Both the position numbers and the translations under genes were made by a program. DNA of 64,000 nt from Saprospira sp. CCB-QB6 (lineage in GTDB: Bacteria; Bacteroidota; Bacteroidia; Chitinophagales; Saprospiraceae), in the NCBI RefSeq assembly GCF_028464065.1, contig NZ_CP116808.1:1007886-1071885 (forward strand), written 5' to 3'. The notes under the pieces were generated by a model, which was not told where the DNA came from, made no database searches, and worked only from the letters and a program-made list of their open reading frames with translations. The stretch's first letter is position 1. Each line of letters opens with the position of its first letter. Positions 7,268-36,014 of this stretch are shown one piece after another.

Positions 7268-8401
7268 CTACTCCAACTTTTCTAAACCCCCAAATTCCGC
7301 CTGCCCCTTAACCAACATGGCTTTCCTAGCCGATAATTCTACCCGCTCCGATTTTTGCAAACAACTAAAGTCCGCCGCTAAGATCTCTGCCAATTCCGCC
7401 AAAACTTCTTCCCGACTCAACCAATACTGCTCACTCAAAAAGATGTCATCCAATAAGGCCTGCTTTAAAGGAGCTAAGGCCTCATCTAAATTCAAATCAC
7501 TGCGATAAAGCGCTTCTAAGCGCTCAAAAAGAGCCAAATGCTGCCCCCGACCCAATAAACTATATTGCCGCCCCTCTTCCAATAAGGCAATGCTCCAACT
7601 CCCCAATGAATAGCCCAAACTATCCAAGGGATAGGCCGCATAAAAAAGTTCTACCAATTGGTCGTCTAAACTATCCGGACTTTGCTGCGCCCGCGCCCCC
7701 CAATATTTATAATCCCGATACAATTTGTACTCGGTCTTTGGCGAAGGCAAATAGACCAAAAAACCCGGAAATACATGGTTGAGCCAAAAGAAATTAGCCA
7801 AACTATCCGCCGAACTCAAGGCCAAGGCCTCATTTACCCGCTCCTCTAAGGCCAACTCCAATTTTTCGCCCCTCCGATAAACCAACCGAAAAGCAGGCAA
7901 GCTCTCTATCGCCGCCGCCTCCCGCTGATACTGCTTGAGCTCTCCCGCCAACTCATCCCCAAAAAAGAAGTGCAAACGCCGATCTAACCAAAGCCGCTGC
8001 AAATCCTCCGACGGCAGGCTGTCAAAACTCAAACAACCCCCAAATAACCAGCCCTTATGCCCATCCGCCGCCTCTACTTCTAACCAAGGCTCCCGATAAT
8101 CTACCCCCTCCAACCGAATTAAACTCTCCGCCTTGCTCATCCGCCCCAAATACCGAAAACTACTGCCTTTGTGGTAGGTCCGCAAACTTTCTGCTGCCCA
8201 ATCTGGCGCCGCTTTTAACTCCCCCTCCCGACTACTCAAACTCAAAGATGCTCCCCGCCCATCTGTCGATAAATATAGGCTACTATCGGCCGTTTCTGCC
8301 AAGGGCTCCTCCGCAGAAATAGGCAATTCTTTAGCCTTTTCCTCACTGCAAGCCCCCAACAACAACAGGGCAAAAAAATATAGATATAACTGCTTGTTCA
8401 T
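7268..8401 (-). CDS. hypothetical lipoprotein (377 aa)
   Basis: Signal peptide with a lipobox (LLLLGACSEE). No known domain recognised. Confidence 0.55.
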   Translation of the reverse strand: MNKQLYLYFFALLLLGACSEEKAKELPISAEEPLAETADSSLYLSTDGRGASLSLSSREGELKAAPDWAAESLRTYHKGSSFRYLGRMSKAESLIRLEGVDYREPWLEVEAADGHKGWLFGGCLSFDSLPSEDLQRLWLDRRLHFFFGDELAGELKQYQREAAAIESLPAFRLVYRRGEKLELALEERVNEALALSSADSLANFFWLNHVFPGFLVYLPSPKTEYKLYRDYKYWGARAQQSPDSLDDQLVELFYAAYPLDSLGYSLGSWSIALLEEGRQYSLLGRGQHLALFERLEALYRSDLNLDEALAPLKQALLDDIFLSEQYWLSREEVLAELAEILAADFSCLQKSERVELSARKAMLVKGQAEFGGLEKLE

Positions 8402-8411
8402 CTTGTTTTAT

Positions 8412-8570
8412 TTTTGGGGCAGCCCCTCCCGTTGGTCGGGTCGCTACGTTTCGGGGCTCGCAAGCCTGCTCGGCCCTTCGGCGGCAATGCCGCCTCGGTC
8501 TGGCCCTACGGGCCACTGCTGCACATCGCTCAGCCAAAAAGACTGGGCTAAAGCCCAGCGAAAATAGAAG
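8412..8570 (+). repeat. GC-rich intergenic repeat element R3 (TTTTGGGGC... family)
   Basis: Starts ttttggggcagcccctccc 10 bp from the start codon of the 7268..8401 gene. It shares the modules gctcgcaagcctgctcggccc and ggtctggccctacgggccactgctgcacatcgct with the other copies. Confidence 0.75.
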
Positions 8571-8788
8571 CATCGCTGCGCGAAGGGCTATCCATGAGCA
8601 GGCAAAGCCGCCTGATATAAATAGCTGCTGCCTAAAACCAAATATCAAAAGCAAAATGCTATTAAACAGCGATTTAGTGAGGCTTGCCGCCCCACTCTAA
8701 TGGAAAATAAATAGAAAAGGACCAAAATACAAAAGAATAGGCAGACCCTCTAAACGTTTTGGACCAAGGGCCAAGCAGTAATCCCCTC

Positions 8789-9489
8789 TGGGAATTTCCC
8801 CAGCTCAATCGGAGGCGGCAAATTAGCCTGGGGAAAATCCCCAAGGTGTTTGGATTTTTCCGATTAGCTTGGGGAAAATCCCCAAGGCGTTTGGATTTTT
8901 CCGATTAGCGTGGGGAAAATCCCCAAGGCATTTGGATTTTTCCGATTAGCTTGGGGAAAATCCCCATGGTGTTTGGATTTTTCCGATTAGCTTGGGGAAA
9001 ATCCCCATGGTGTTTGGATTTTTCCGATTAGCGTGGGGAAAATCCCCATGGTGTTTGGATTTTTCCGATTAGCTTGGGGAAAATCCCCAAGGCATTTGGA
9101 TTTTTCCAATTAGCGTGGGGAAAATCCCCAAGGTGTTTGGATTTTTCCAATTAGCGTGGGGAAAATCCCCATGGTGTTTGGATTTTTCCGATTAGCTTGG
9201 GGAAAATCCCCAAGGCATTTGGATTTTTCCGATTAGCGTGGGGAAAATCCCCAAGGCATTTGGATTTTTCCGATTAGCTTGGGGAAAATCCCCAAGGCAT
9301 TTGGATTTTTCCGATTAGCGTGGGGAAAATCCCCAAGGCATTTGGATTTTTCCGATTAGCTTGGGGAAAATCCCCATGGTGTTTGGATTTTTCCGATTAG
9401 CGTGGGGAAAATCCCCATGGCATTTGGATTTTTCCGATTAGCGTGGGGAAAATCCCCAAGGCATTTGGATTTTTCCGATTAGCTTGGGA
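8789..9489 (+). repeat. tandem array of about 16 x 41/42-bp units (GGGGAAAATCCCCAAGGYRTTTGGATTTTTCCRATTAGCKT) with leader aatcggaggcggcaaattagc
   Basis: Read directly: the period is 41 bp, with occasional 42-bp units carrying an extra T. Each unit holds two small palindromes, GGGGAAAATCCCC and TTGGATTTTTCCRA. Variation is confined to four positions (a/t, yr, g/a, t/g). No unique spacers are present and no frame stays open. Confidence 0.9.
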
Positions 9490-9593
9490 TAGTTGTCTAA
9501 GGCCCTATCTTTTTTTTCTGGACCGACCCTACTAGGGTTTAGCTAGAGTTATTTAGGGGGCAAATAAAGGAGTTTGTTGCAACTCCAAAAAGT

Positions 9594-9626
9594 GGCCGAT
9601 CTATCCACAAATGGATAGATCGGCCT
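9594..9626 (-). terminator. terminator hairpin downstream of queE
   Basis: Perfect 13-bp palindrome GGCCGATCTATCC ACAAAT GGATAGATCGGCC followed on the minus strand by ACTTTTTGG. Confidence 0.5.
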
Positions 9627-9666
9627 TGTATTGGGCGGAAAACGTTTGTAGGGAGGGCATTGCATT

Positions 9667-10434
9667 TTAGACCCCAGTGAGTTGGTCCCAAATTTCGACA
9701 TGTAGGCGGCTACACATTCTAATTTGTTCTCGGATACAGATTTCGGCCACCATTTTATTGCGTTGGAGCAGGGCTTCTAGGCTATCGGCAGCGGGCATAA
9801 GGACCAATTGTTCTTTTTTGATGAGGCCGGGCGTTAAGAAATCCCGTTGAATTTCTTCAAAATCGCTAGCTTGGGCAATCACAAACTTAAAGATGGTTCC
9901 TTTTTCTTGGGCCAAGACTTGGAGGGCTTGGGGAACAAGGCGTTTTTGCTTGGGCATGCCAGAGTTTTGGAGTTTTGGGGAACAATTCCAGTAGCTGACC
10001 CTTTCTAATAAGGAAGAAGAGGGGACAAAACAGCCATTGGTTTCTACCTCAATGATAGGGCGGAGGCCCTGTCGTTCTTGTTCTAAGAAGCTTAGAAAGG
10101 CGGCAATGCGTTTATCTTGTAGGAGAGGTTCTCCCCCAGTAATAACTAAGTGCACGCCTTGGGCCAATCGTTGGCTAAAGGCTAATTCTTGGTCTAGGCG
10201 TTGGAGTAATTGAGGGAAGGGAAGGCTTTCGCCCTTCATCCAGACCTCCATAGTGTCGCAGATCCAGCTGGCGCCATCATGCAGTTGTCCGTCTTTTTCG
10301 GCACCTTTCCCGCCGCAGATCAGGTTGCAGCCAGAGAGGCGGAGGAAGATAGCGGGCACGCCCATAGTTTGGCCTTCTCCTTGAAGGCTGTAAAAGTATT
10401 CGCTAACAGCGAGTAGAGTAGGCATTTTTGGCAT
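9667..10434 (-). CDS. queE: 7-carboxy-7-deazaguanine synthase (radical SAM, queuosine pathway)
   Basis: The N-terminal signature E.F.S.QGEG..G.P..F.R.SGCNL is present. The unusual Cx14CxxC cluster CNLICGGKGAEKDGQLHDGASWICDT is known from the QueE subfamily. Confidence 0.75.
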   Translation of the reverse strand: MPKMPTLLAVSEYFYSLQGEGQTMGVPAIFLRLSGCNLICGGKGAEKDGQLHDGASWICDTMEVWMKGESLPFPQLLQRLDQELAFSQRLAQGVHLVITGGEPLLQDKRIAAFLSFLEQERQGLRPIIEVETNGCFVPSSSLLERVSYWNCSPKLQNSGMPKQKRLVPQALQVLAQEKGTIFKFVIAQASDFEEIQRDFLTPGLIKKEQLVLMPAADSLEALLQRNKMVAEICIREQIRMCSRLHVEIWDQLTGV

Positions 10435-10764: not shown

Positions 10765-12201
10765 ATGAAAAAATCACCCTTATGGATAGCGAGTATTTTG
10801 CTTTTATTGCTTTTTCAGGCCTCTGGGGTTTGGGCGCAATCGGCCAAAAAGACCAGCTATAAAAATAATGAAGAAGTTCGGACCGTGCAAGGTTGCGAAT
10901 ATCAGGTCTTGAAGGGCTTGGCAGAAATTACGGCAGTAGAAAAGACCCGTTCTAAATCGGAAAGTGCTTTGGGTTATGATGAATATAGCGTAAAGTTCAA
11001 GTTCATTCCGATGGAAAAAGGGCAGCAATTGATGGCTGACTTTGGGGAAAACAGCTTTGACTTTTTCTTGCGTAGTGGGTATGATCGTTTGCCTGTTGGG
11101 CCCAAGTATCTTAAGCATTATTATGTGCATAAGGGGCAAAAGTTTGCGATGGAATTTTTGCAGACGGGCGACAAAACTTGTCGGGAGCAGTACACCTATA
11201 AATCATTGGGGATTCCCAACGATTTATTTGAGGCTCAGGATAGTATCAAGGCCTACAAGATTCAGGTAGCGGCAGAAAAGCTCTACAAAAAAGAGAAAGA
11301 GGTGAATGAGGCCAAGGGAATTGCGATGGCCGAAGAGGCGGCTACGCAAACGAGCGGTAACCGTCCGCCAGAAGTTGCGCCTGTAGAGGAGCCCAAAGAA
11401 GAGGATCCCAAGGAAGAGGAAGATCCCACTGAGGAAGATCCCAAGGAGGAGGAAGAGCCTGAGGTAGACTTGAATTTGCCTTCTGATGAAGAATTGCGTA
11501 AAAAAGTAGAGGCTGAAATGCGGGCTAAGGAAGGGATTAAAAAGAGTCCGGATGAGATTGATGTAGACTCTTTGCGTGCGGCAATTGAGAAAGAAGAGCG
11601 CGCCAAGGCTAAGGCTGAGGCGGCCAAGCAGGCGGAATTGGATCAGAAAAACGCCATTAAGCGCGAGAAGCAGGCGGCCAAAGAGCGCAAGAAACTAGAA
11701 GAGCAGCGTCGCAAGGAAATCAAGGCCAAAGAAGAAGCCCTTCGGGATGAGATGGCGGCTAAATTGGCGGAGGAAAAAGAGGCGATTGAGGCGCGTAAGG
11801 AAGCTATTCGCGAGCAGGTCACCAATGAAATCCGCAGAGAGAGCTGTGTATATGAGGAAAAAGTATCGGGAACCATCAAGGTGGTTTCCGTGGAGGAAGG
11901 TCCCACGGAAGTGGAGAGTTTGTTTGGCTATAAGGAGTATGTAGTTACCCTTAGATTTAAGCCCGACAACTATTCTGATTTATCTAAGAAAGAGCGTAAG
12001 CTTTGGGATAAGACCTTTACCTTCAAATTGGACCCTAAGGGCAAGAGTGCGAATCCTGGGGCGACTTATGTGCGGATTCACAAGCTCTTCAAGGGCAATA
12101 AGTACAATGGGTTTGCGCAGCGTTTATCTTCTGGAATCTGTAATGACATCATGGTTTATTCTCCTGATTTGCCCATTGATGCGAGTCAGGTGCGCAAATA
12201 A
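10765..12201 (+). CDS. secreted hypothetical protein with internal duplication and K/E-rich coiled-coil linker
   Basis: Signal peptide present. The N-terminal module (CEYQV...GYDEYSVKFKF) and C-terminal module (CVYEE...GYKEYVVTLRF) are related. The central roughly 200 aa are EEDPKEEE / KAKAEAAK low complexity. Confidence 0.55.
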   Translation: MKKSPLWIASILLLLLFQASGVWAQSAKKTSYKNNEEVRTVQGCEYQVLKGLAEITAVEKTRSKSESALGYDEYSVKFKFIPMEKGQQLMADFGENSFDFFLRSGYDRLPVGPKYLKHYYVHKGQKFAMEFLQTGDKTCREQYTYKSLGIPNDLFEAQDSIKAYKIQVAAEKLYKKEKEVNEAKGIAMAEEAATQTSGNRPPEVAPVEEPKEEDPKEEEDPTEEDPKEEEEPEVDLNLPSDEELRKKVEAEMRAKEGIKKSPDEIDVDSLRAAIEKEERAKAKAEAAKQAELDQKNAIKREKQAAKERKKLEEQRRKEIKAKEEALRDEMAAKLAEEKEAIEARKEAIREQVTNEIRRESCVYEEKVSGTIKVVSVEEGPTEVESLFGYKEYVVTLRFKPDNYSDLSKKERKLWDKTFTFKLDPKGKSANPGATYVRIHKLFKGNKYNGFAQRLSSGICNDIMVYSPDLPIDASQVRK

Positions 12202-31139: not shown

Positions 31140-32048
31140 ATGAAATCTTTCTTTAAATTTCTATACTACTTCCTTAGTTCTAAGGTATTTCTCAAGAATA
31201 TTGGGATGATGATCGGCATCGCCTTGCTGAGCTTTGTCCTCCTCTTTTGGGTTATTTTGCCCTCTTATACTCGACACAATGAGTCCATCGAGGTACCCGA
31301 TATCAAAGGCCTTTCGGTCAAAAATGCCGAGCGCCAACTCAAAAGCCGAAAGCTTCGCCTAGTGGTGACCGACACAATTTATGATGCCAAGAGAAACCCC
31401 GGCATTATCCTCAAACAATCGCCCGAAGCCAATAGCCGCGTTAAACCCAACCGCAGCATTTACCTAACGGTCAACTCCAATAGTGCGCCCCCCGTCAATA
31501 TCTATTATAATGAGATCATTGGCCGCCCCCTCAATTTTGTCGAGAAGAAATTTAGAGCCCTCGGCCTCAAAATTGGCCAACTCAAGTATGTCGATGGAGG
31601 TGGAGAAAATACCGTGGCCGCCGCCTACACCAAAGATAAAATTCTCATCTTTAAGGAGGCCGATCCTAGTAAGGGCGAACGCCGCCCCAAACAACCTTAT
31701 CAACTCAAACAAGGCGATAAGATTGATCTCGAACTCTATAAAGGAAAGGATAGTGGCAAAAAAACGATTCCCGACCTCAGTTGCATGATTTTCTCCGAGG
31801 CCGAATTCTCAATCAAAGCCAATGCTTTTTATATTGGCACCGTGAGCTATGGCCCCAATATCATTGATACCATGAATGCCTATGTGGTCCGCCAATCGCC
31901 CTCTGCTGCCTCTAAAGCAAGCATGGGCGCAGGAATCGACATCTGGCTCTCTGCCGAAAAACCCGAAGTTTGCAACGAAATGAACCAAGAAGATGCTCCC
32001 AATAGCGGAGATACTTTTGATGATGATTTTGGCGGAATCGGCGGCTAA
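31140..32048 (+). CDS. PASTA domain-containing membrane protein
   Basis: An N-terminal TM helix followed by segments with the PASTA-like pattern (VPDIKGLSVKNAERQL..LRLVV). Confidence 0.55.
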   Translation: MKSFFKFLYYFLSSKVFLKNIGMMIGIALLSFVLLFWVILPSYTRHNESIEVPDIKGLSVKNAERQLKSRKLRLVVTDTIYDAKRNPGIILKQSPEANSRVKPNRSIYLTVNSNSAPPVNIYYNEIIGRPLNFVEKKFRALGLKIGQLKYVDGGGENTVAAAYTKDKILIFKEADPSKGERRPKQPYQLKQGDKIDLELYKGKDSGKKTIPDLSCMIFSEAEFSIKANAFYIGTVSYGPNIIDTMNAYVVRQSPSAASKASMGAGIDIWLSAEKPEVCNEMNQEDAPNSGDTFDDDFGGIGG

Positions 32049-32103
32049 AACAATCCTCCTCTCCCGCTAATCTTCTTTTCTGATTAGCTACATATAGCAG
32101 CAA

Positions 32104-32138
32104 AATAGCCTTCTAGTTTTTAGACTAGAAGGCTGTTT
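32104..32138 (+). terminator. rho-independent terminator
   Basis: Hairpin AGCCTTCTAGT TTTT AGACTAGAAGGCT followed by T7. Confidence 0.65.
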
Positions 32139-32292
32139 TTTTGGGGCTGCCCCTCCCTGCGGTCGGGTCGGGCTGTTTCGCAGCTCGCTATTCGCTCGGC
32201 CCTTCGGCGCAAAGCGCCTCGGTCTGGCCCTGCGGGCCACTGCTGTCCATCCCTCAGCCGATGCTCTGGGCTTCGCCCAGACTGGAAGCGGG
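32139..32292 (+). repeat. GC-rich repeat element R11
   Basis: ttttggggctgcccctccctgcggtcgggtcgggctgtttcgcagctcgctattcgctcggccc... This is near-identical to R20 at 54877. Confidence 0.8.
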
Positions 32293-32384
32293 ATTGCTGC
32301 TCTATCCCCTCCAATAATGACTAAAGGCAAAAGAGCATTGCCCTTTTTCTGTTGATTTGGACCAAAGTTTAGCTGCTCATCCCC

Positions 32385-32799
32385 CTTGGGGATTCCCCCA
32401 AGCCAATCGGAGGCGGCAAATTAGCATGGGGAAATTCCCCATGGCGATCGGAGGCGGCAAATTAGCATGGGGAAATTCCCCATGGCGATCGGAGGCGGCA
32501 AATTAGCGTGGGGAAATTCCCCATGGCGTTTGGATTTTTCCGATTAGCCTGGGGAAAATCCCCAAGGCGTTTGGATTTTTCCGATTAGTGTGGGGAAATT
32601 CCCCATGGCGTTTGGATTTTTCCGATTAGCGTGGGGAAATTCCCCATGGCGTTTGGATTTTTCCGATTAACGTGGGGAAATTCCCCATGGCGTTTGGATT
32701 TTTCCGATTAGCGTGGGGAAATTCCCCATGGCGTTTGGATTTTTCCGATTAGCCTGGGGAAATTCCCCATGGCGTTTGGATTTTTCCGATTAACGTGGG
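32385..32799 (+). repeat. tandem array 2: about 9-10 x 41-bp units (GGGGAAATTCCCCATGGCG...), homologous to array 1
   Basis: The leader ccaatcggaggcggcaaattagc is followed by three hybrid units (ggggaaattccccatggcgatcggaggcggcaaattagcat). These are followed by units of the array-1 type. The tail gggatagctgtctaaggccctatcttttttttctggaccg matches the array-1 tail at 9486-9535. Confidence 0.9.
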
Positions 32800-33159
32800 A
32801 TAGCTGTCTAAGGCCCTATCTTTTTTTTCTGGACCGCCCCTACTACAGATCAGCTAGGCTCGCTTAAAAACAAAATATTGAAAACCCTTGTATTCTTGGG
32901 CCAAGAATCCTGCAGCCTAAAGGCCGCAGGGCCATAGCTGTAGGTTGAAACCTACAGCCAATTAACGAATGCATTTTAATATAGTATGCAGGGTTAAAAC
33001 CCTCCATAAACAAACATCTTCTAGGCTGCCTAAATCATAAATGCAGCAATTCAGAGGGCTGTTAAAAGCTGTGGAGGGTTTCAACCCTCCACGCTATGGA
33101 TCTAGGCTGTTTTTTGTTGTCTGGCTGTAGGTTTCAACCTACAGACCTCATTGGAGATG

Positions 33160-33300
33160 GCCGAAGGCCAAATGGCCTAGCGATGTGCAGCAGTGGCCGT
33201 CAGGCCAGACCAAGCGGGCCTAAGCCCGCGCAGGGCCGAGCGAATAGCGAGCTGCGGAACGTAGCGCCGCAAGGCCGTAGGCCGCAGCGGAGGCCCCAAA
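33160..33300 (-). repeat. GC-rich repeat element R12
   Basis: ggcctagcgatgtgcagcagtggcc...gggccgagcgaatagcgagctgcggaacgtagcgcc...ggaggccccaaaac. Confidence 0.75.
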
Positions 33301-33305
33301 ACAGA

Positions 33306-36014
33306 TTAATTCTCTTTATTGGAATGCTGCAATTGCTTTTGAGCTTCTCGTTCTTGGCCAAAGGTCAGAATATGGCGAATAAAATCGAAGGGTTGATAGC
33401 CATTGATTGCCGTTTGGTGGAAGATGCAGGTAGCGGGCGTCATGCCGGGCAAAGAATTGACCTCGATGACGAGGGTTTCGGCACGGCCATCGGCATAAAT
33501 GCGGACAAAAGCATCGATTCGGGCATAGCCCGTAACGCCCAAAATGCGTGCGGCCTGCTCCAAATCTGCTTTGATTTGGGCCGCCAGGGGCGCGTATTCG
33601 AGTTCGCCAACAGCTAGGCGGGCGGGGGTAATATTTTGACCTTCTCCAGCCAAAAATTTCTCTTCCAGCGATAAAATCTCGCCAGAGGCTAGGGTTTCGG
33701 AAGGTTCAAAGACCTCATAGCGGATGCTTCCATCAGCCTCGTGATGGCAAAGTAGGCCCACCGTCACTTCTAGAAAGTGCAGGGCATCTTTTTGCTCAAC
33801 CAGCTGCTCTAAGAGGGCATATTCCTTTTGGGGAAACTCCTCTTTGGGTAGAATAGCTAGGCGATCTTGGGCAATTTGGGGCAGGGCTTCTTCCTCGCGG
33901 AAAAGGGCGGCCAGAAAGGCCTCCAGTTCTGCCTCATTTTTGATCTTTTTCACGGCAGAGCTACAGCCATCATCTACGGGCTTGGCGATCAGGGGCCAGC
34001 CCAGCTTTTCGCCAGCTTCTTTGAGGCAGGCTTGAGTTTGGGCCAGATAATCGCTTTTGCTCAAGAGGATTTGTTCGGTAACGGGTAGGCCTGCGGCTTT
34101 CAGCTTTTGTAGACTTTGATATTTATCGATCGTCAAGGCGGCAGAATCGGCCTCGGAGCCATTAAAAGCGATCCCTCTTTGGGCCAATTCTCTTTGGAGG
34201 GCGCCATCCTCACCGGGGCGGCCATGCAAAGCGATAAAGGCCAGGCGGGTCTCTTCCGCTAGGGCATCAAAAGAGAGTGGGCGGGGATCAAGGCGGCTAC
34301 TGCGGCCAGAAAACTGCTGAGCAATATGGGCCGTTTCTTGGCGAATCTGTTGGATAATGGGATGCACCTTATAATTCAGCAACTTATCGCGAATATCATC
34401 TGCATTATCCTTGAGCAAAAGGTTGATGGGCAGCTCATAGAGCTGTTGGTCATCGGCCTTGCCCGTAAGGAAAACGGGAAAGGGCAGGTAATTGGCCGAG
34501 CTGGCCAACTTTTCATAAATATTGCGGCCACTTTCTACCGAAATATGGCGCTCGGAAGAATATCCGCCAAGGATGACGGCCACCTTTTGGAGTTCGGAAA
34601 CCTCTCCTTCTAGGCGTTGCATCTCGCTTTCCAATTGGGCCAATAATTGGCCGTAGTTATTGGGGCGCAGGCATTTTCGGCTGCGGGCCAAGAGCGATCG
34701 GTGGATAATAAAGCTGAGAAAATGCGAGGGATTGAGGCCAATTTCGGCGGCTTGATGGAAAAAGAAAGAAGAAGGCAGCATACCCGAAGTGGTATTCGGG
34801 TCATTGAGAATAATGCGGCCATCGGCTTGGATAAAACCATCAATTCGGGCATAGACATCAAACTCTAGGAAGCGGAAAAGGCGTTCGCACTCTTGTCGGA
34901 TCGCTTGAATTTGTTCCTCGGGCAAATCGATAGGCGTCAACTTGCGAGAGAGTCCGGCCAGATACTTAGAACGGTAGTCAAAGAGCTCTTTGCCTTTGAT
35001 AATCTCGGTGGGGGGCAGAGCGATCGGTTGGCCGTCTTCATCTTGGATCACGACACAGGAAAACTCTCGGCCTTCGATAAAGCCTTCAAGTAAAACGCTT
35101 TCTTCTCGGTATTGGCTTTGTAGGTGGAGTTTGGGGCTATGTCCCTGCCCTAATTCCTTATCGAGTAGGGCCAGTAATTGCTCGGGATGGTAGAGCAATT
35201 GTTTATCTTTTTTGGGGCCTTGTACTTCTAGCGGGAACCCTAAGCCAGATCGGATATCAAGTAATTTGCGCATCCATTGGATCTGTTCCTCTCTATTCAT
35301 TTGCTGCCAATCTTGGGCGCTAATTTCGAGACCAAAGAAGGCATCTTCTAGGGCGGCGATAAGGTCTTCGGGTTGATCGACAATACTCACACCGATAGAA
35401 GAGCCTTGATTAGAGGGGCGAACGACTAGGGGGAAGCCCATTTCCTTTTTGAGCTGCTCCATATTGGGCAGTTGGCCGCTCCAGTCTTTGGCCCAGATTT
35501 GTTGGATGGGGGGGCTTTCGAAACCGCCAGCCTGCATCATCTTCTTTTGGAAACTTTTGTCCATGCCCAGACTACTTGCTCGAATGCCAGAGCCACTATA
35601 GGGGATGCCTAGGGCCTCTAACATGCCTTGGAGTTGGCCATCTTCGCCCCATTCGCCATGTAGGCTAAGGAAGGCAAAATCAATTAGTTCGGGTAATTCG
35701 CTAAAGCTAATTGGGCGACCAATTTGGCCGAGTAATTCCTTAGAAGCTTGTTTAGAGAGACCGAGACTTTCCACATAAATTTGAAAATGATGTGGGCTAG
35801 GTGGTAGGGCCTGCACGGGGGGATAAAAGTCGCGGATACTGCCTTTATAGAGATACTCCCAATCGAGTAGGCAAAGTTGGCCAAAGCTATCGACAAAAAT
35901 AGGGATAGGCCGAAAGAGTTGTTTATTTAGATTATCGTAGACGGTTCGGCCGCCTGCAAAGGCGATTTCGCGTTCGCGGGAAGGGCCGGCCAGAAAGATT
36001 CCAATAGTTAACAT
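33306..36014 (-). CDS. tandem D-alanine--D-alanine ligase-like protein (two complete Ddl/ATP-grasp modules fused, 902 aa)
   Basis: Two Ddl N-domain motifs are present (GIFLAGPSREREIAFAGGRTVYDNL and VAVILGGYSSERHISVESGRNIYEKL). There are two central LHG..GEDG..Q motifs and two ATP-grasp cores (GFPLVVRPSNQGSSIGVSIV and GWPLIAKPVDDGCSSAVKKI). The C-terminus has EVNSLPGMT. Confidence 0.7.
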   Translation of the reverse strand: MLTIGIFLAGPSREREIAFAGGRTVYDNLNKQLFRPIPIFVDSFGQLCLLDWEYLYKGSIRDFYPPVQALPPSPHHFQIYVESLGLSKQASKELLGQIGRPISFSELPELIDFAFLSLHGEWGEDGQLQGMLEALGIPYSGSGIRASSLGMDKSFQKKMMQAGGFESPPIQQIWAKDWSGQLPNMEQLKKEMGFPLVVRPSNQGSSIGVSIVDQPEDLIAALEDAFFGLEISAQDWQQMNREEQIQWMRKLLDIRSGLGFPLEVQGPKKDKQLLYHPEQLLALLDKELGQGHSPKLHLQSQYREESVLLEGFIEGREFSCVVIQDEDGQPIALPPTEIIKGKELFDYRSKYLAGLSRKLTPIDLPEEQIQAIRQECERLFRFLEFDVYARIDGFIQADGRIILNDPNTTSGMLPSSFFFHQAAEIGLNPSHFLSFIIHRSLLARSRKCLRPNNYGQLLAQLESEMQRLEGEVSELQKVAVILGGYSSERHISVESGRNIYEKLASSANYLPFPVFLTGKADDQQLYELPINLLLKDNADDIRDKLLNYKVHPIIQQIRQETAHIAQQFSGRSSRLDPRPLSFDALAEETRLAFIALHGRPGEDGALQRELAQRGIAFNGSEADSAALTIDKYQSLQKLKAAGLPVTEQILLSKSDYLAQTQACLKEAGEKLGWPLIAKPVDDGCSSAVKKIKNEAELEAFLAALFREEEALPQIAQDRLAILPKEEFPQKEYALLEQLVEQKDALHFLEVTVGLLCHHEADGSIRYEVFEPSETLASGEILSLEEKFLAGEGQNITPARLAVGELEYAPLAAQIKADLEQAARILGVTGYARIDAFVRIYADGRAETLVIEVNSLPGMTPATCIFHQTAINGYQPFDFIRHILTFGQEREAQKQLQHSNKEN

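Follow-up and report, generated by a model that had tools for sequence, protein, structure and literature searches.

What purpose, if any, is served by a long run of 41-bp units lying between two genes on the chromosome of Saprospira sp. CCB-QB6? We analyzed a 64,000-nucleotide stretch of this chromosome (NZ_CP116808.1, positions 1,007,886 to 1,071,885 of the forward strand; hereafter the window), in which an initial annotation made from the sequence alone had described one such run, here called array 1. The results show that array 1 belongs to a lineage-restricted, hypervariable composite minisatellite with a fixed polarity, of which CCB-QB6 and its close relatives carry two paralogous copies. 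As a tentative reading, to which we give a probability of roughly 0.4, each locus would be a small, self-contained gene on the + strand; its RNA, built from repeated multi-hairpin modules, would act as a multivalent decoy or scaffold, and the array would change length by slippage.

Architecture of the two arrays

Array 1 was found by Tandem Repeats Finder at 8822-9488 with a period of 41, 16.3 copies, 94% matches, 0% indels and a score of 1110. When the region was sliced into 41-base rows, 16 head-to-tail units were in perfect register at 8830-9485; hence the initial count of about 16 tandem units was correct, while the 42-bp units reported among them are not there, as all 16 are 41 bp long. 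The same program found a second 41-bp array at 32420-32799, inside a paralogous locus at 32388-32858. A degenerate unit pattern matched 23 times in the window (0.00 expected from shuffles), and all 23 matches are on the + strand and confined to these two arrays. Orthologous loci were taken from contigs encoding near-identical neighbour proteins and from one metagenome scan, and across the resulting six arrays every unit is exactly 41 bp (59/59, including 16/16 in array 1). Since the window matches the complete 4.19-Mb chromosome and independent metagenome assemblies hold the same loci, array 1 is not an assembly artefact. The parts of the two loci are as follows.

8758-8767, + strand: conserved box TTTGGACCAA, about 30 nt 5' of the first hairpin; similarity between the paralogues starts here
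8790-8829, + strand: leader, the degenerate first unit (A0), with hairpin GGGAATTTCCCC at 8790-8801 and A-type core AATCGGAGGCGGCAAATTAGC at 8807-8827
8830-9485, + strand: array 1, 16 B-type units of 41 bp each, GGGGAAAATCCCC-AWGGYR-TTTGGATTTTTCCRA-TTAGCKT
Unit positions 1-13 and 17-39, + strand: the predicted hairpins of the array 1 B unit
9486-9517, + strand: tail of array 1, a degenerate unit with hairpin GGGATAGTTGTCTAAGGCCCTATC at 9486-9509 and T8 at 9510-9517; candidate intrinsic terminator
9518-9548, + strand: conserved post-tail segment CTGGACCGACCCTACTAGGGTTTAGCTAGAG; similarity between the paralogues stops here
32356-32365, + strand: TTTGGACCAA box of the paralogous locus
32388-32509, + strand: 5' block of array 2, comprising A0 (hairpin 32388-32399, core 32405-32425) and A units at 32428-32468 and 32469-32509
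32510-32796, + strand: 3' block of array 2, seven B-type units of 41 bp
32797-32858, + strand: tail of array 2, with hairpin GGGATAGCTGTCTAAGGCCCTATC at 32797-32820, T8 at 32821-32828 and the conserved post-tail segment
Reference sequences: B unit TTTGGMTTTTTCCRATTAGC; A core TCGGAGGYGGCAAATTAGC; tail GTCTAAGGCCCTATCTTTTTT

Two unit types, each exactly 41 bp, make up these loci. The A type has the form GGGGAAATTCCCC-ANNNCA-ATCGGAGGCGGCAAA-TTAGCNT and the B type the form GGGGAAAWTCCCC-AWGGYR-TTTGGMTTTTTCCRA-TTAGCNT. In array 2 and in the orthologues L132 and L139, the A-type core is tandemly repeated as full 41-bp units, and by this comparison the leader is the first, degenerate A unit rather than a unique sequence. 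The initial annotation had placed a degenerate proto-unit and a leader before the array; both elements are present (8790-8801 and 8807-8827), and it is the uniqueness of the leader that falls away. All six arrays run from leader through A units and B units to tail on the same strand, and the two types are never interleaved. The TTTGGACCAA box is identical in all six aligned loci, and the tail hairpin core with its T-run (T7 or T8) is kept in 6/6. The 8-mer TTTGGACC occurs a further 12 times in the window, mostly within genes. The paralogues resemble each other only within a segment that opens with the TTTGGACCAA box, some 30 nt ahead of the first hairpin, and closes about 30-45 nt past the T8, as would be expected for a small gene carrying its own signals. 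The composition of the six arrays is as follows.

Window array 1, locus 1: A0 and 16 B units
Window array 2, locus 2: A0, 2 A units and 7 B units
L132, locus 1 orthologue: A0, 6 A units and 6 B units
L134 / L137, locus 1 orthologue: 10 B units, no A unit
L139, locus 2 orthologue: A0, 9 A units and 3 B units
L138, locus 2 orthologue: A0 and 1 B unit

The number of units differs in every strain (16, 12 and 10 at locus 1; 9, 12 and 1 at locus 2), with 0-9 units of the A type and 1-16 of the B type per array. Three orthologue contigs are short-read assemblies, so their unit counts are provisional, and the architecture is reproducible. Within array 1 the units vary at position 15 (A/T), positions 18-19 (TG/CG/CA), position 33 (G/A) and position 40 (T/G), in agreement with the four variable sites named at the outset. 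Over the 41 B-unit copies of the six arrays 29 of 41 columns are invariant, and wherever units vary, in either paralogue and in any strain, they do so at the same small set of positions. The second unit type, the order of A before B, the variation in copy number between strains and the position at inversion junctions (see below) had all been left out of the initial account.

Array 1 is non-coding, because 41 is not a multiple of three, so that the frame rotates with each unit, and because stops (TAG on the + strand, TAA on the - strand) limit open reading frames (ORFs) in the array to about 40 codons. The earlier claim that the array is non-coding thus stands, on these grounds and not on the mixture of 41- and 42-bp lengths given for it. 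Array 1 had also been held not to be a CRISPR array, and this is correct since it contains no unique spacers: the units abut, and one GGGGA..TCCCC hairpin is separated from the next by 28 nt of constant sequence.

Predicted folding and strand asymmetry

As predicted from sequence, a single B unit folds as (((((...)))))...(((.(((((....))))).).)).. with -14.2 kcal/mol (z = -2.2 compared to shuffles), and the whole locus folds with z = -13.9 on the + strand compared to -9.4 on the - strand. The asymmetry is most evident in the second hairpin of the B unit, whose mean minimum free energy is -6.7 kcal/mol on the + strand and -2.7 kcal/mol on the - strand. This hairpin is far more stable on the + strand because it is built on G-U pairs, which become A-C mismatches when read on the other strand, and the bias agrees with the orientation of the conserved T8. 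In an alignment of 28 distinct B units, 97.5% of the structure cells are paired, and the four variable pairs of the second helix show only one-sided changes between G-C or A-U and G-U. The A units are without the inner stem and are predicted to present an open CGGAGGCGGCAA loop. A covariance model (R1) built from the 28 distinct B units and run with filters off gave 67-71 bits for each unit of array 1 and 35-37 bits for the A units of array 2; with this model no solitary or diverged unit was found in the 64-kb window outside the two arrays, and no hairpin 1 motif lies there either.

The orientation of the flanking genes also bears on the strand. Array 1 lies in a 1.26-kb gap flanked by two - strand genes, and the genes next to the arrays are as follows.

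7268-8401, - strand: gene for a 377-aa hypothetical protein; diverges from array 1
9667-10434, - strand: gene for a QueE-like radical-SAM protein; converges on array 1 and has its own terminator with a 14-bp stem
31140-32048, + strand: PASTA-domain gene, with a strong terminator followed by array 2
33306-36014, - strand: 902-aa Ddl-like gene, on which array 2 converges

Because of these orientations and the terminator of the PASTA-domain gene, neither array is an untranslated region of a + strand gene. No + strand ORF follows either tail, as the downstream genes converge on the arrays. The sole nearby + strand ORF (33096-33617, 173 aa) starts about 270 nt past the T8, overlaps the 3' end of the Ddl-like gene and has no match in Pfam, PADLOC or NCBIfam, and it is probably spurious. 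None of the flanking genes examined encodes ParA, ParB, Rep or another recognisable DNA-binding protein, and no neighbour gene matches a toxin model of Pfam or PADLOC. A preQ1 riboswitch was considered since a QueE-like gene adjoins array 1; it was rejected because the array is convergent with the gene, no preQ1 model matches and in S. grandis the gene is present but no array accompanies it.

Competing readings and known systems

In the reading that we favour, each locus would be a + strand transcription unit whose product is a non-coding RNA of repeated 41-nt modules. The B module would fold into a GGGGA-AAW-UCCCC hairpin and a second one with a UUGGA-UUUU-UCCGA stem that contains G-U and is closed by GC(R)/U.GC, and in the A module the second hairpin would be replaced by the open loop. 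Such an RNA would most plausibly be a multivalent decoy or scaffold for a putative RNA-binding factor, and how many binding modules it carries would be determined by slippage during replication or by unequal recombination among the exact 41-bp units. Sponges of the CsrB/RsmZ type, which are stand-alone non-coding RNA genes with many short hairpin motifs and a terminator, are the functional model proposed here; their GGA-loop hairpins are irregularly spaced, unlike the exact tandem units of Saprospira, in which GGA falls in the 5' arm of the second stem (B units) or, as GGAGG, in the predicted open loop (A units). The Csr/Rsm models of Rfam do not match the arrays. If the loci are transcribed and functional, they would represent an unusual bacterial regulatory RNA with a valency set by a hypervariable exact tandem array, in a phylum, Bacteroidota, in which little is known of global RNA-binding regulators and of their sponges. 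A bolder version is that the two loci encode modular repeat RNAs of a class not described before, laid out as leader, A modules, B modules and terminator, each 41-nt two-hairpin module being a binding unit for an RNA-binding protein or nuclease, by CsrB-like titration or by ToxI-like inhibition without a linked toxin, and slippage tuning the module number, and with it the titration capacity, between strains; we consider this version unlikely.

Several results weigh against an RNA gene. Among the 28 distinct B units no pair shows a double-sided change, and permutation tests give no covariation (p = 0.13-0.6). Covariation in the closing stem of hairpin 2 was tried separately and rejected (B units, p = 0.23; A units, p = 0.13; double-sided changes absent), as was an extended hairpin 1 formed by unit position 40 and position 15 in the following unit, which do not pair in excess (p = 0.38-0.60). 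The terminator-like tail of the initial annotation is present, with hairpin and T8, yet its stem is weak: it is predicted at -5.5 kcal/mol, far weaker than the 11-14-bp terminators of the neighbours, and a simple terminator scanner did not detect the tail of array 1. A scan for sigma-70-type promoters gave nothing relevant, and no Bacteroidota-type -33/-7 promoter fits by eye beyond the TTTG in TTTGGACCAA, a box that may be a promoter or transcription-start element. Divergence between strains is 11% in unique intergenic DNA and 17-19% at third codon positions; compared to the neutral flanks, leader and tail are better conserved among the orthologues of array 1 and not better conserved among those of array 2. 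Purifying selection on leader and tail is thus suggested at locus 1 and not at locus 2, and we do not claim it. In addition, copy number that changes from strain to strain implies that a function, if there is one, withstands large shifts in dosage, the element was found in one narrow lineage only, and its palindromes are equally compatible with DNA sites.

Almost as likely as the repeat-RNA gene, although still doubtful, is a functionless or selfish DNA minisatellite, that is, a palindromic intergenic element (its ancestor, for example, a small hairpin or terminator cassette) that was tandemly amplified by slippage and unequal crossing-over and once duplicated, with any transcription incidental and with consequences only for genome plasticity and strain typing. 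The extreme variation in copy number between close strains, the hint of a higher-order two-unit periodicity in array 1 (a trace typical of unequal exchange), the missing covariation, the locus 2 leader that is no better conserved than its flanks, the absence of the element from the syntenic junctions of S. grandis and the abundance of other intergenic repeats in the genome would all fit such an origin. So would the fact that the same leader/tandem/tail layout occurs in pneumococcal BOX (PMC3049150) and P. gingivalis BrickBuilt (PMC4596501). What it explains less well is that 29 of 41 B-unit columns stay invariant over 41 copies in strains 11-19% diverged at neutral sites, with the same few positions polymorphic throughout; neither the strict order of A before B nor the conserved polarity of the T8 is required of neutral DNA, and the wobble-only variation is strand-specific. 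If the arrays are a minisatellite only, they would be a good variable-number tandem repeat marker for this Saprospira lineage, and in either case caution is advised with short-read assemblies of the region.

The described repeats closest in layout differ in several respects. BrickBuilt of Porphyromonas gingivalis is a minisatellite-MITE (miniature inverted-repeat transposable element) that has a 23-nt unit, ends in small inverted repeats and is present in 19 copies per genome; it is species-restricted and reported as transcriptionally active (PMC4596501). It shares with the Saprospira element a Bacteroidota host, a strictly intergenic location, a spacer-less tandem array, conserved leader and tail subunits and variable copy number, whereas the Saprospira element has a 41-nt unit, two unit types in fixed order, a T8 tail and two loci seen. 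BOX of Streptococcus pneumoniae (PMC3049150) has the form boxA-boxB(n)-boxC, is useful for typing, is transcribed in some copies and is predicted to form stem-loops if transcribed. Its middle module, like the Saprospira units, is tandemly amplified in variable number between fixed end modules; in contrast, BOX copies are dispersed, MITE-like and bounded by terminal inverted repeats, and the Saprospira element, with two amplified module types, occupies two loci and lacks inverted ends; the host phyla are unrelated, and the sequences show no similarity. The MITE-type layout, with end modules flanking an amplified middle, was found in all six arrays. As for terminal inverted repeats, no inverted 7-mer in the flanks is consistent between the two loci, and array 2 lacks such 7-mers entirely. 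The TGGACC motifs in common are repeated in direct orientation, not inverted. BOX is a high-copy element with more than 100 copies per genome, and the copies found of the Saprospira element are the two loci in the 64-kb window and, as orthologues of these, two contigs in the one metagenome of the Joint Genome Institute (JGI) that holds a relative. REP/BIME-type palindromes were rejected, since no solitary unit lies outside the two arrays in the window and the GC-rich repeat nearby is a different family.

The two inverted repeats per unit that the initial annotation described were found, at a rigid 41-bp spacing, and they can also be read as DNA sites. An iteron or centromere-like (sopC-type) array would have a dimeric protein recognise GGGGA-N3-TCCCC and/or TTGGA-N4-TCCRA every 41 bp, about four helical turns, so that the bound proteins would align on one face of curved DNA and form a nucleoprotein complex. 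The A4 and T5 tracts of the B unit are about 20-21 bp apart, roughly in helical phase, from which curvature may be inferred. The F-plasmid sopC site resembles array 1 in having 12 direct repeats of 43 bp (compared to 16 of 41 bp), each of which carries a 16-bp inverted repeat to which SopB binds (PMC3177203). However, sopC adjoins sopAB on a plasmid and acts as DNA, and the Saprospira arrays are chromosomal, have no adjacent partition genes and add the strand-specific T8 and G-U-only pairing. With no ParA/ParB or recognisable DNA-binding protein among the flanking genes examined, a dominant second palindrome that is imperfect as DNA (TTGGA/TCCGA) and pairs as RNA through G-U, A-type units that lack this palindrome, a conserved T8 and fixed polarity that would be purposeless for a symmetric site, and a single B unit in L138 that would give no cooperativity, we regard a protein-binding array as improbable. 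The computation leans towards a + strand RNA over an iteron array, without settling the choice, because of the strand asymmetry, the wobble-only variation, the conserved T8 and the placement between the terminators of the neighbours.

An orphan type III antitoxin-like or decoy RNA, cut into 41-nt inhibitors of an endoribonuclease whose gene would lie elsewhere in the genome or on an invading phage, is very improbable. ToxI consists of 36-nt tandem direct repeats, followed by a terminator and preceded by a promoter, which give structured RNA units (PMC3401426, PMC5086642). The Saprospira arrays are similar in having tandem repeats of type III-typical length (16 and 9 units of 41 nt) with predicted structure, followed by a terminator-like hairpin and T8, albeit with a weak stem. 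They differ in that a toxin gene immediately downstream is absent: the genes there are on the - strand (9667-10434 and 33306-36014), no + strand ORF follows either tail, and the only + strand ORF nearby is the 173-aa one that overlaps the conserved Ddl-like gene without a Pfam, PADLOC or NCBIfam match. Also, the unit occurs in no phage or viral contig scanned. Sixteen units is far above the number known from described type III antitoxin arrays.

Searches of wider collections agree with the initial view that no described family is recognisable. At gathering score, Rfam 15 found only three tRNAs in the window. Below threshold (E up to 10), its best match was tsr1 (RF02576) with 37.5 bits compared to a gathering score of 235, and the other matches were eukaryotic miRNA models that fit the palindromes. 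Blastn against plasmids and phages, and a scan of viral contigs with three patterns, gave no match. No spurious ORFs of the kind that such arrays would contain were found in a protein collection, and nothing relevant was found in the literature on Saprospira repeats and on tsr1. The pattern GGGGANNNTCCCC-N24-32-GGGGANNNTCCCC, which is loose, was run over a genome collection; the unit was in 0 of the at least 120 loci listed, and the matches were unrelated paired terminators. By these comparisons the array matches no described family.

Distribution and inversion junctions

In the JGI metagenome scan the unit was present in only two contigs, both from one sample, and these are orthologues of the same two loci, which speaks for two loci in each genome and against a high-copy element. 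For comparison, we used about 224 kb in total from S. grandis: Lewin, DSM 2844 and a third genome (CP110854), under accessions CP002831, JH719942 and CP110854, together with several S. grandis-type metagenomic contigs. S. grandis is about 85% identical to the window in nucleotides, and neither unit, leader nor tail was found at homologous positions in the three genomes and these contigs. As regards the possibility raised initially that the locus type is absent from all relatives, orthologues are present in two metagenomic relatives and absent at the matching S. grandis positions. In S. grandis the gene for the 377-aa protein abuts the Ddl-like gene, and the QueE-like gene abuts the PASTA-domain gene. 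The array-bearing intergenic regions, 8536-9664 and 32043-33172, are without a counterpart there (compared to L121 and L126), and both coincide exactly with the two junctions of a single inversion relative to S. grandis. Because of this location, the arrays and the GC-rich repeat beside each of them are candidate recombination substrates in Saprospira chromosomes. A second rearrangement breakpoint lies near 2164/23803 of the window.

The GC-rich repeat is a dispersed intergenic repeat of about 130 bp with core GGTCTGGCCCTNCGGGCCAC and at least seven copies in the 64 kb, and it is a family separate from the 41-bp arrays. A copy stands upstream of both array loci, beyond the TTTGGACCAA box, and copies are present at all these junctions in both species, often as inverted pairs in S. 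grandis. Judged from this distribution, the repeat is likely to be a recombination substrate and is a simpler candidate than the arrays. Its copies, and other small repeats nearby, are as follows.

1166, 8497, 21234 (-), 32221, 40707 (-), 54958 and 55991 (-) of the window: GC-rich repeat
12760-13060 of L121, 12720-13080 of L123 and 7640-7870 of L126: GC-rich repeat outside the window
32900-33090 of the window, 11880-12150 of L139 and about 12840-12870 of L123: REP-like hairpins

The small REP-like hairpins share a GGTTGAAACC-type centre (for example CTGTAGGTTGAAACCTACAG and GGAGGGTTTCAACCCTCC) and are a recurrent feature of the intergenic DNA of Saprospira downstream of array 2. Relatives do not have the same gene after their orthologue of this array: it is a 494-aa ORF in L138 and, in L139, an ORF judged TsaD-like by eye only. 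The 902-aa Ddl-like ORF of the window (33306-36014, - strand) contains several modules resembling D-Ala-D-Ala ligase and ATP-grasp, and its full length is kept in several Saprospira genomes.

Near array 1, a 478-aa hypothetical ORF (10765-12201), which has no match in Pfam, NCBIfam or PADLOC, contains short tandem repeats of 15/18 bp at 11385-11456. A tRNA-His(GTG) lies in a tandemly duplicated 178-bp segment at 1783-2106, and its copies at 1808-1882 and 1986-2060 are 99% identical. In the metagenomic relatives (L132, 11173-12604; L134, 3644-5075), three extra small genes of 153, 131 and 188 aa stand between the gene for the 377-aa protein and a TraB-family gene; they are absent from the window, where these two genes are adjacent (7228 and 7268).

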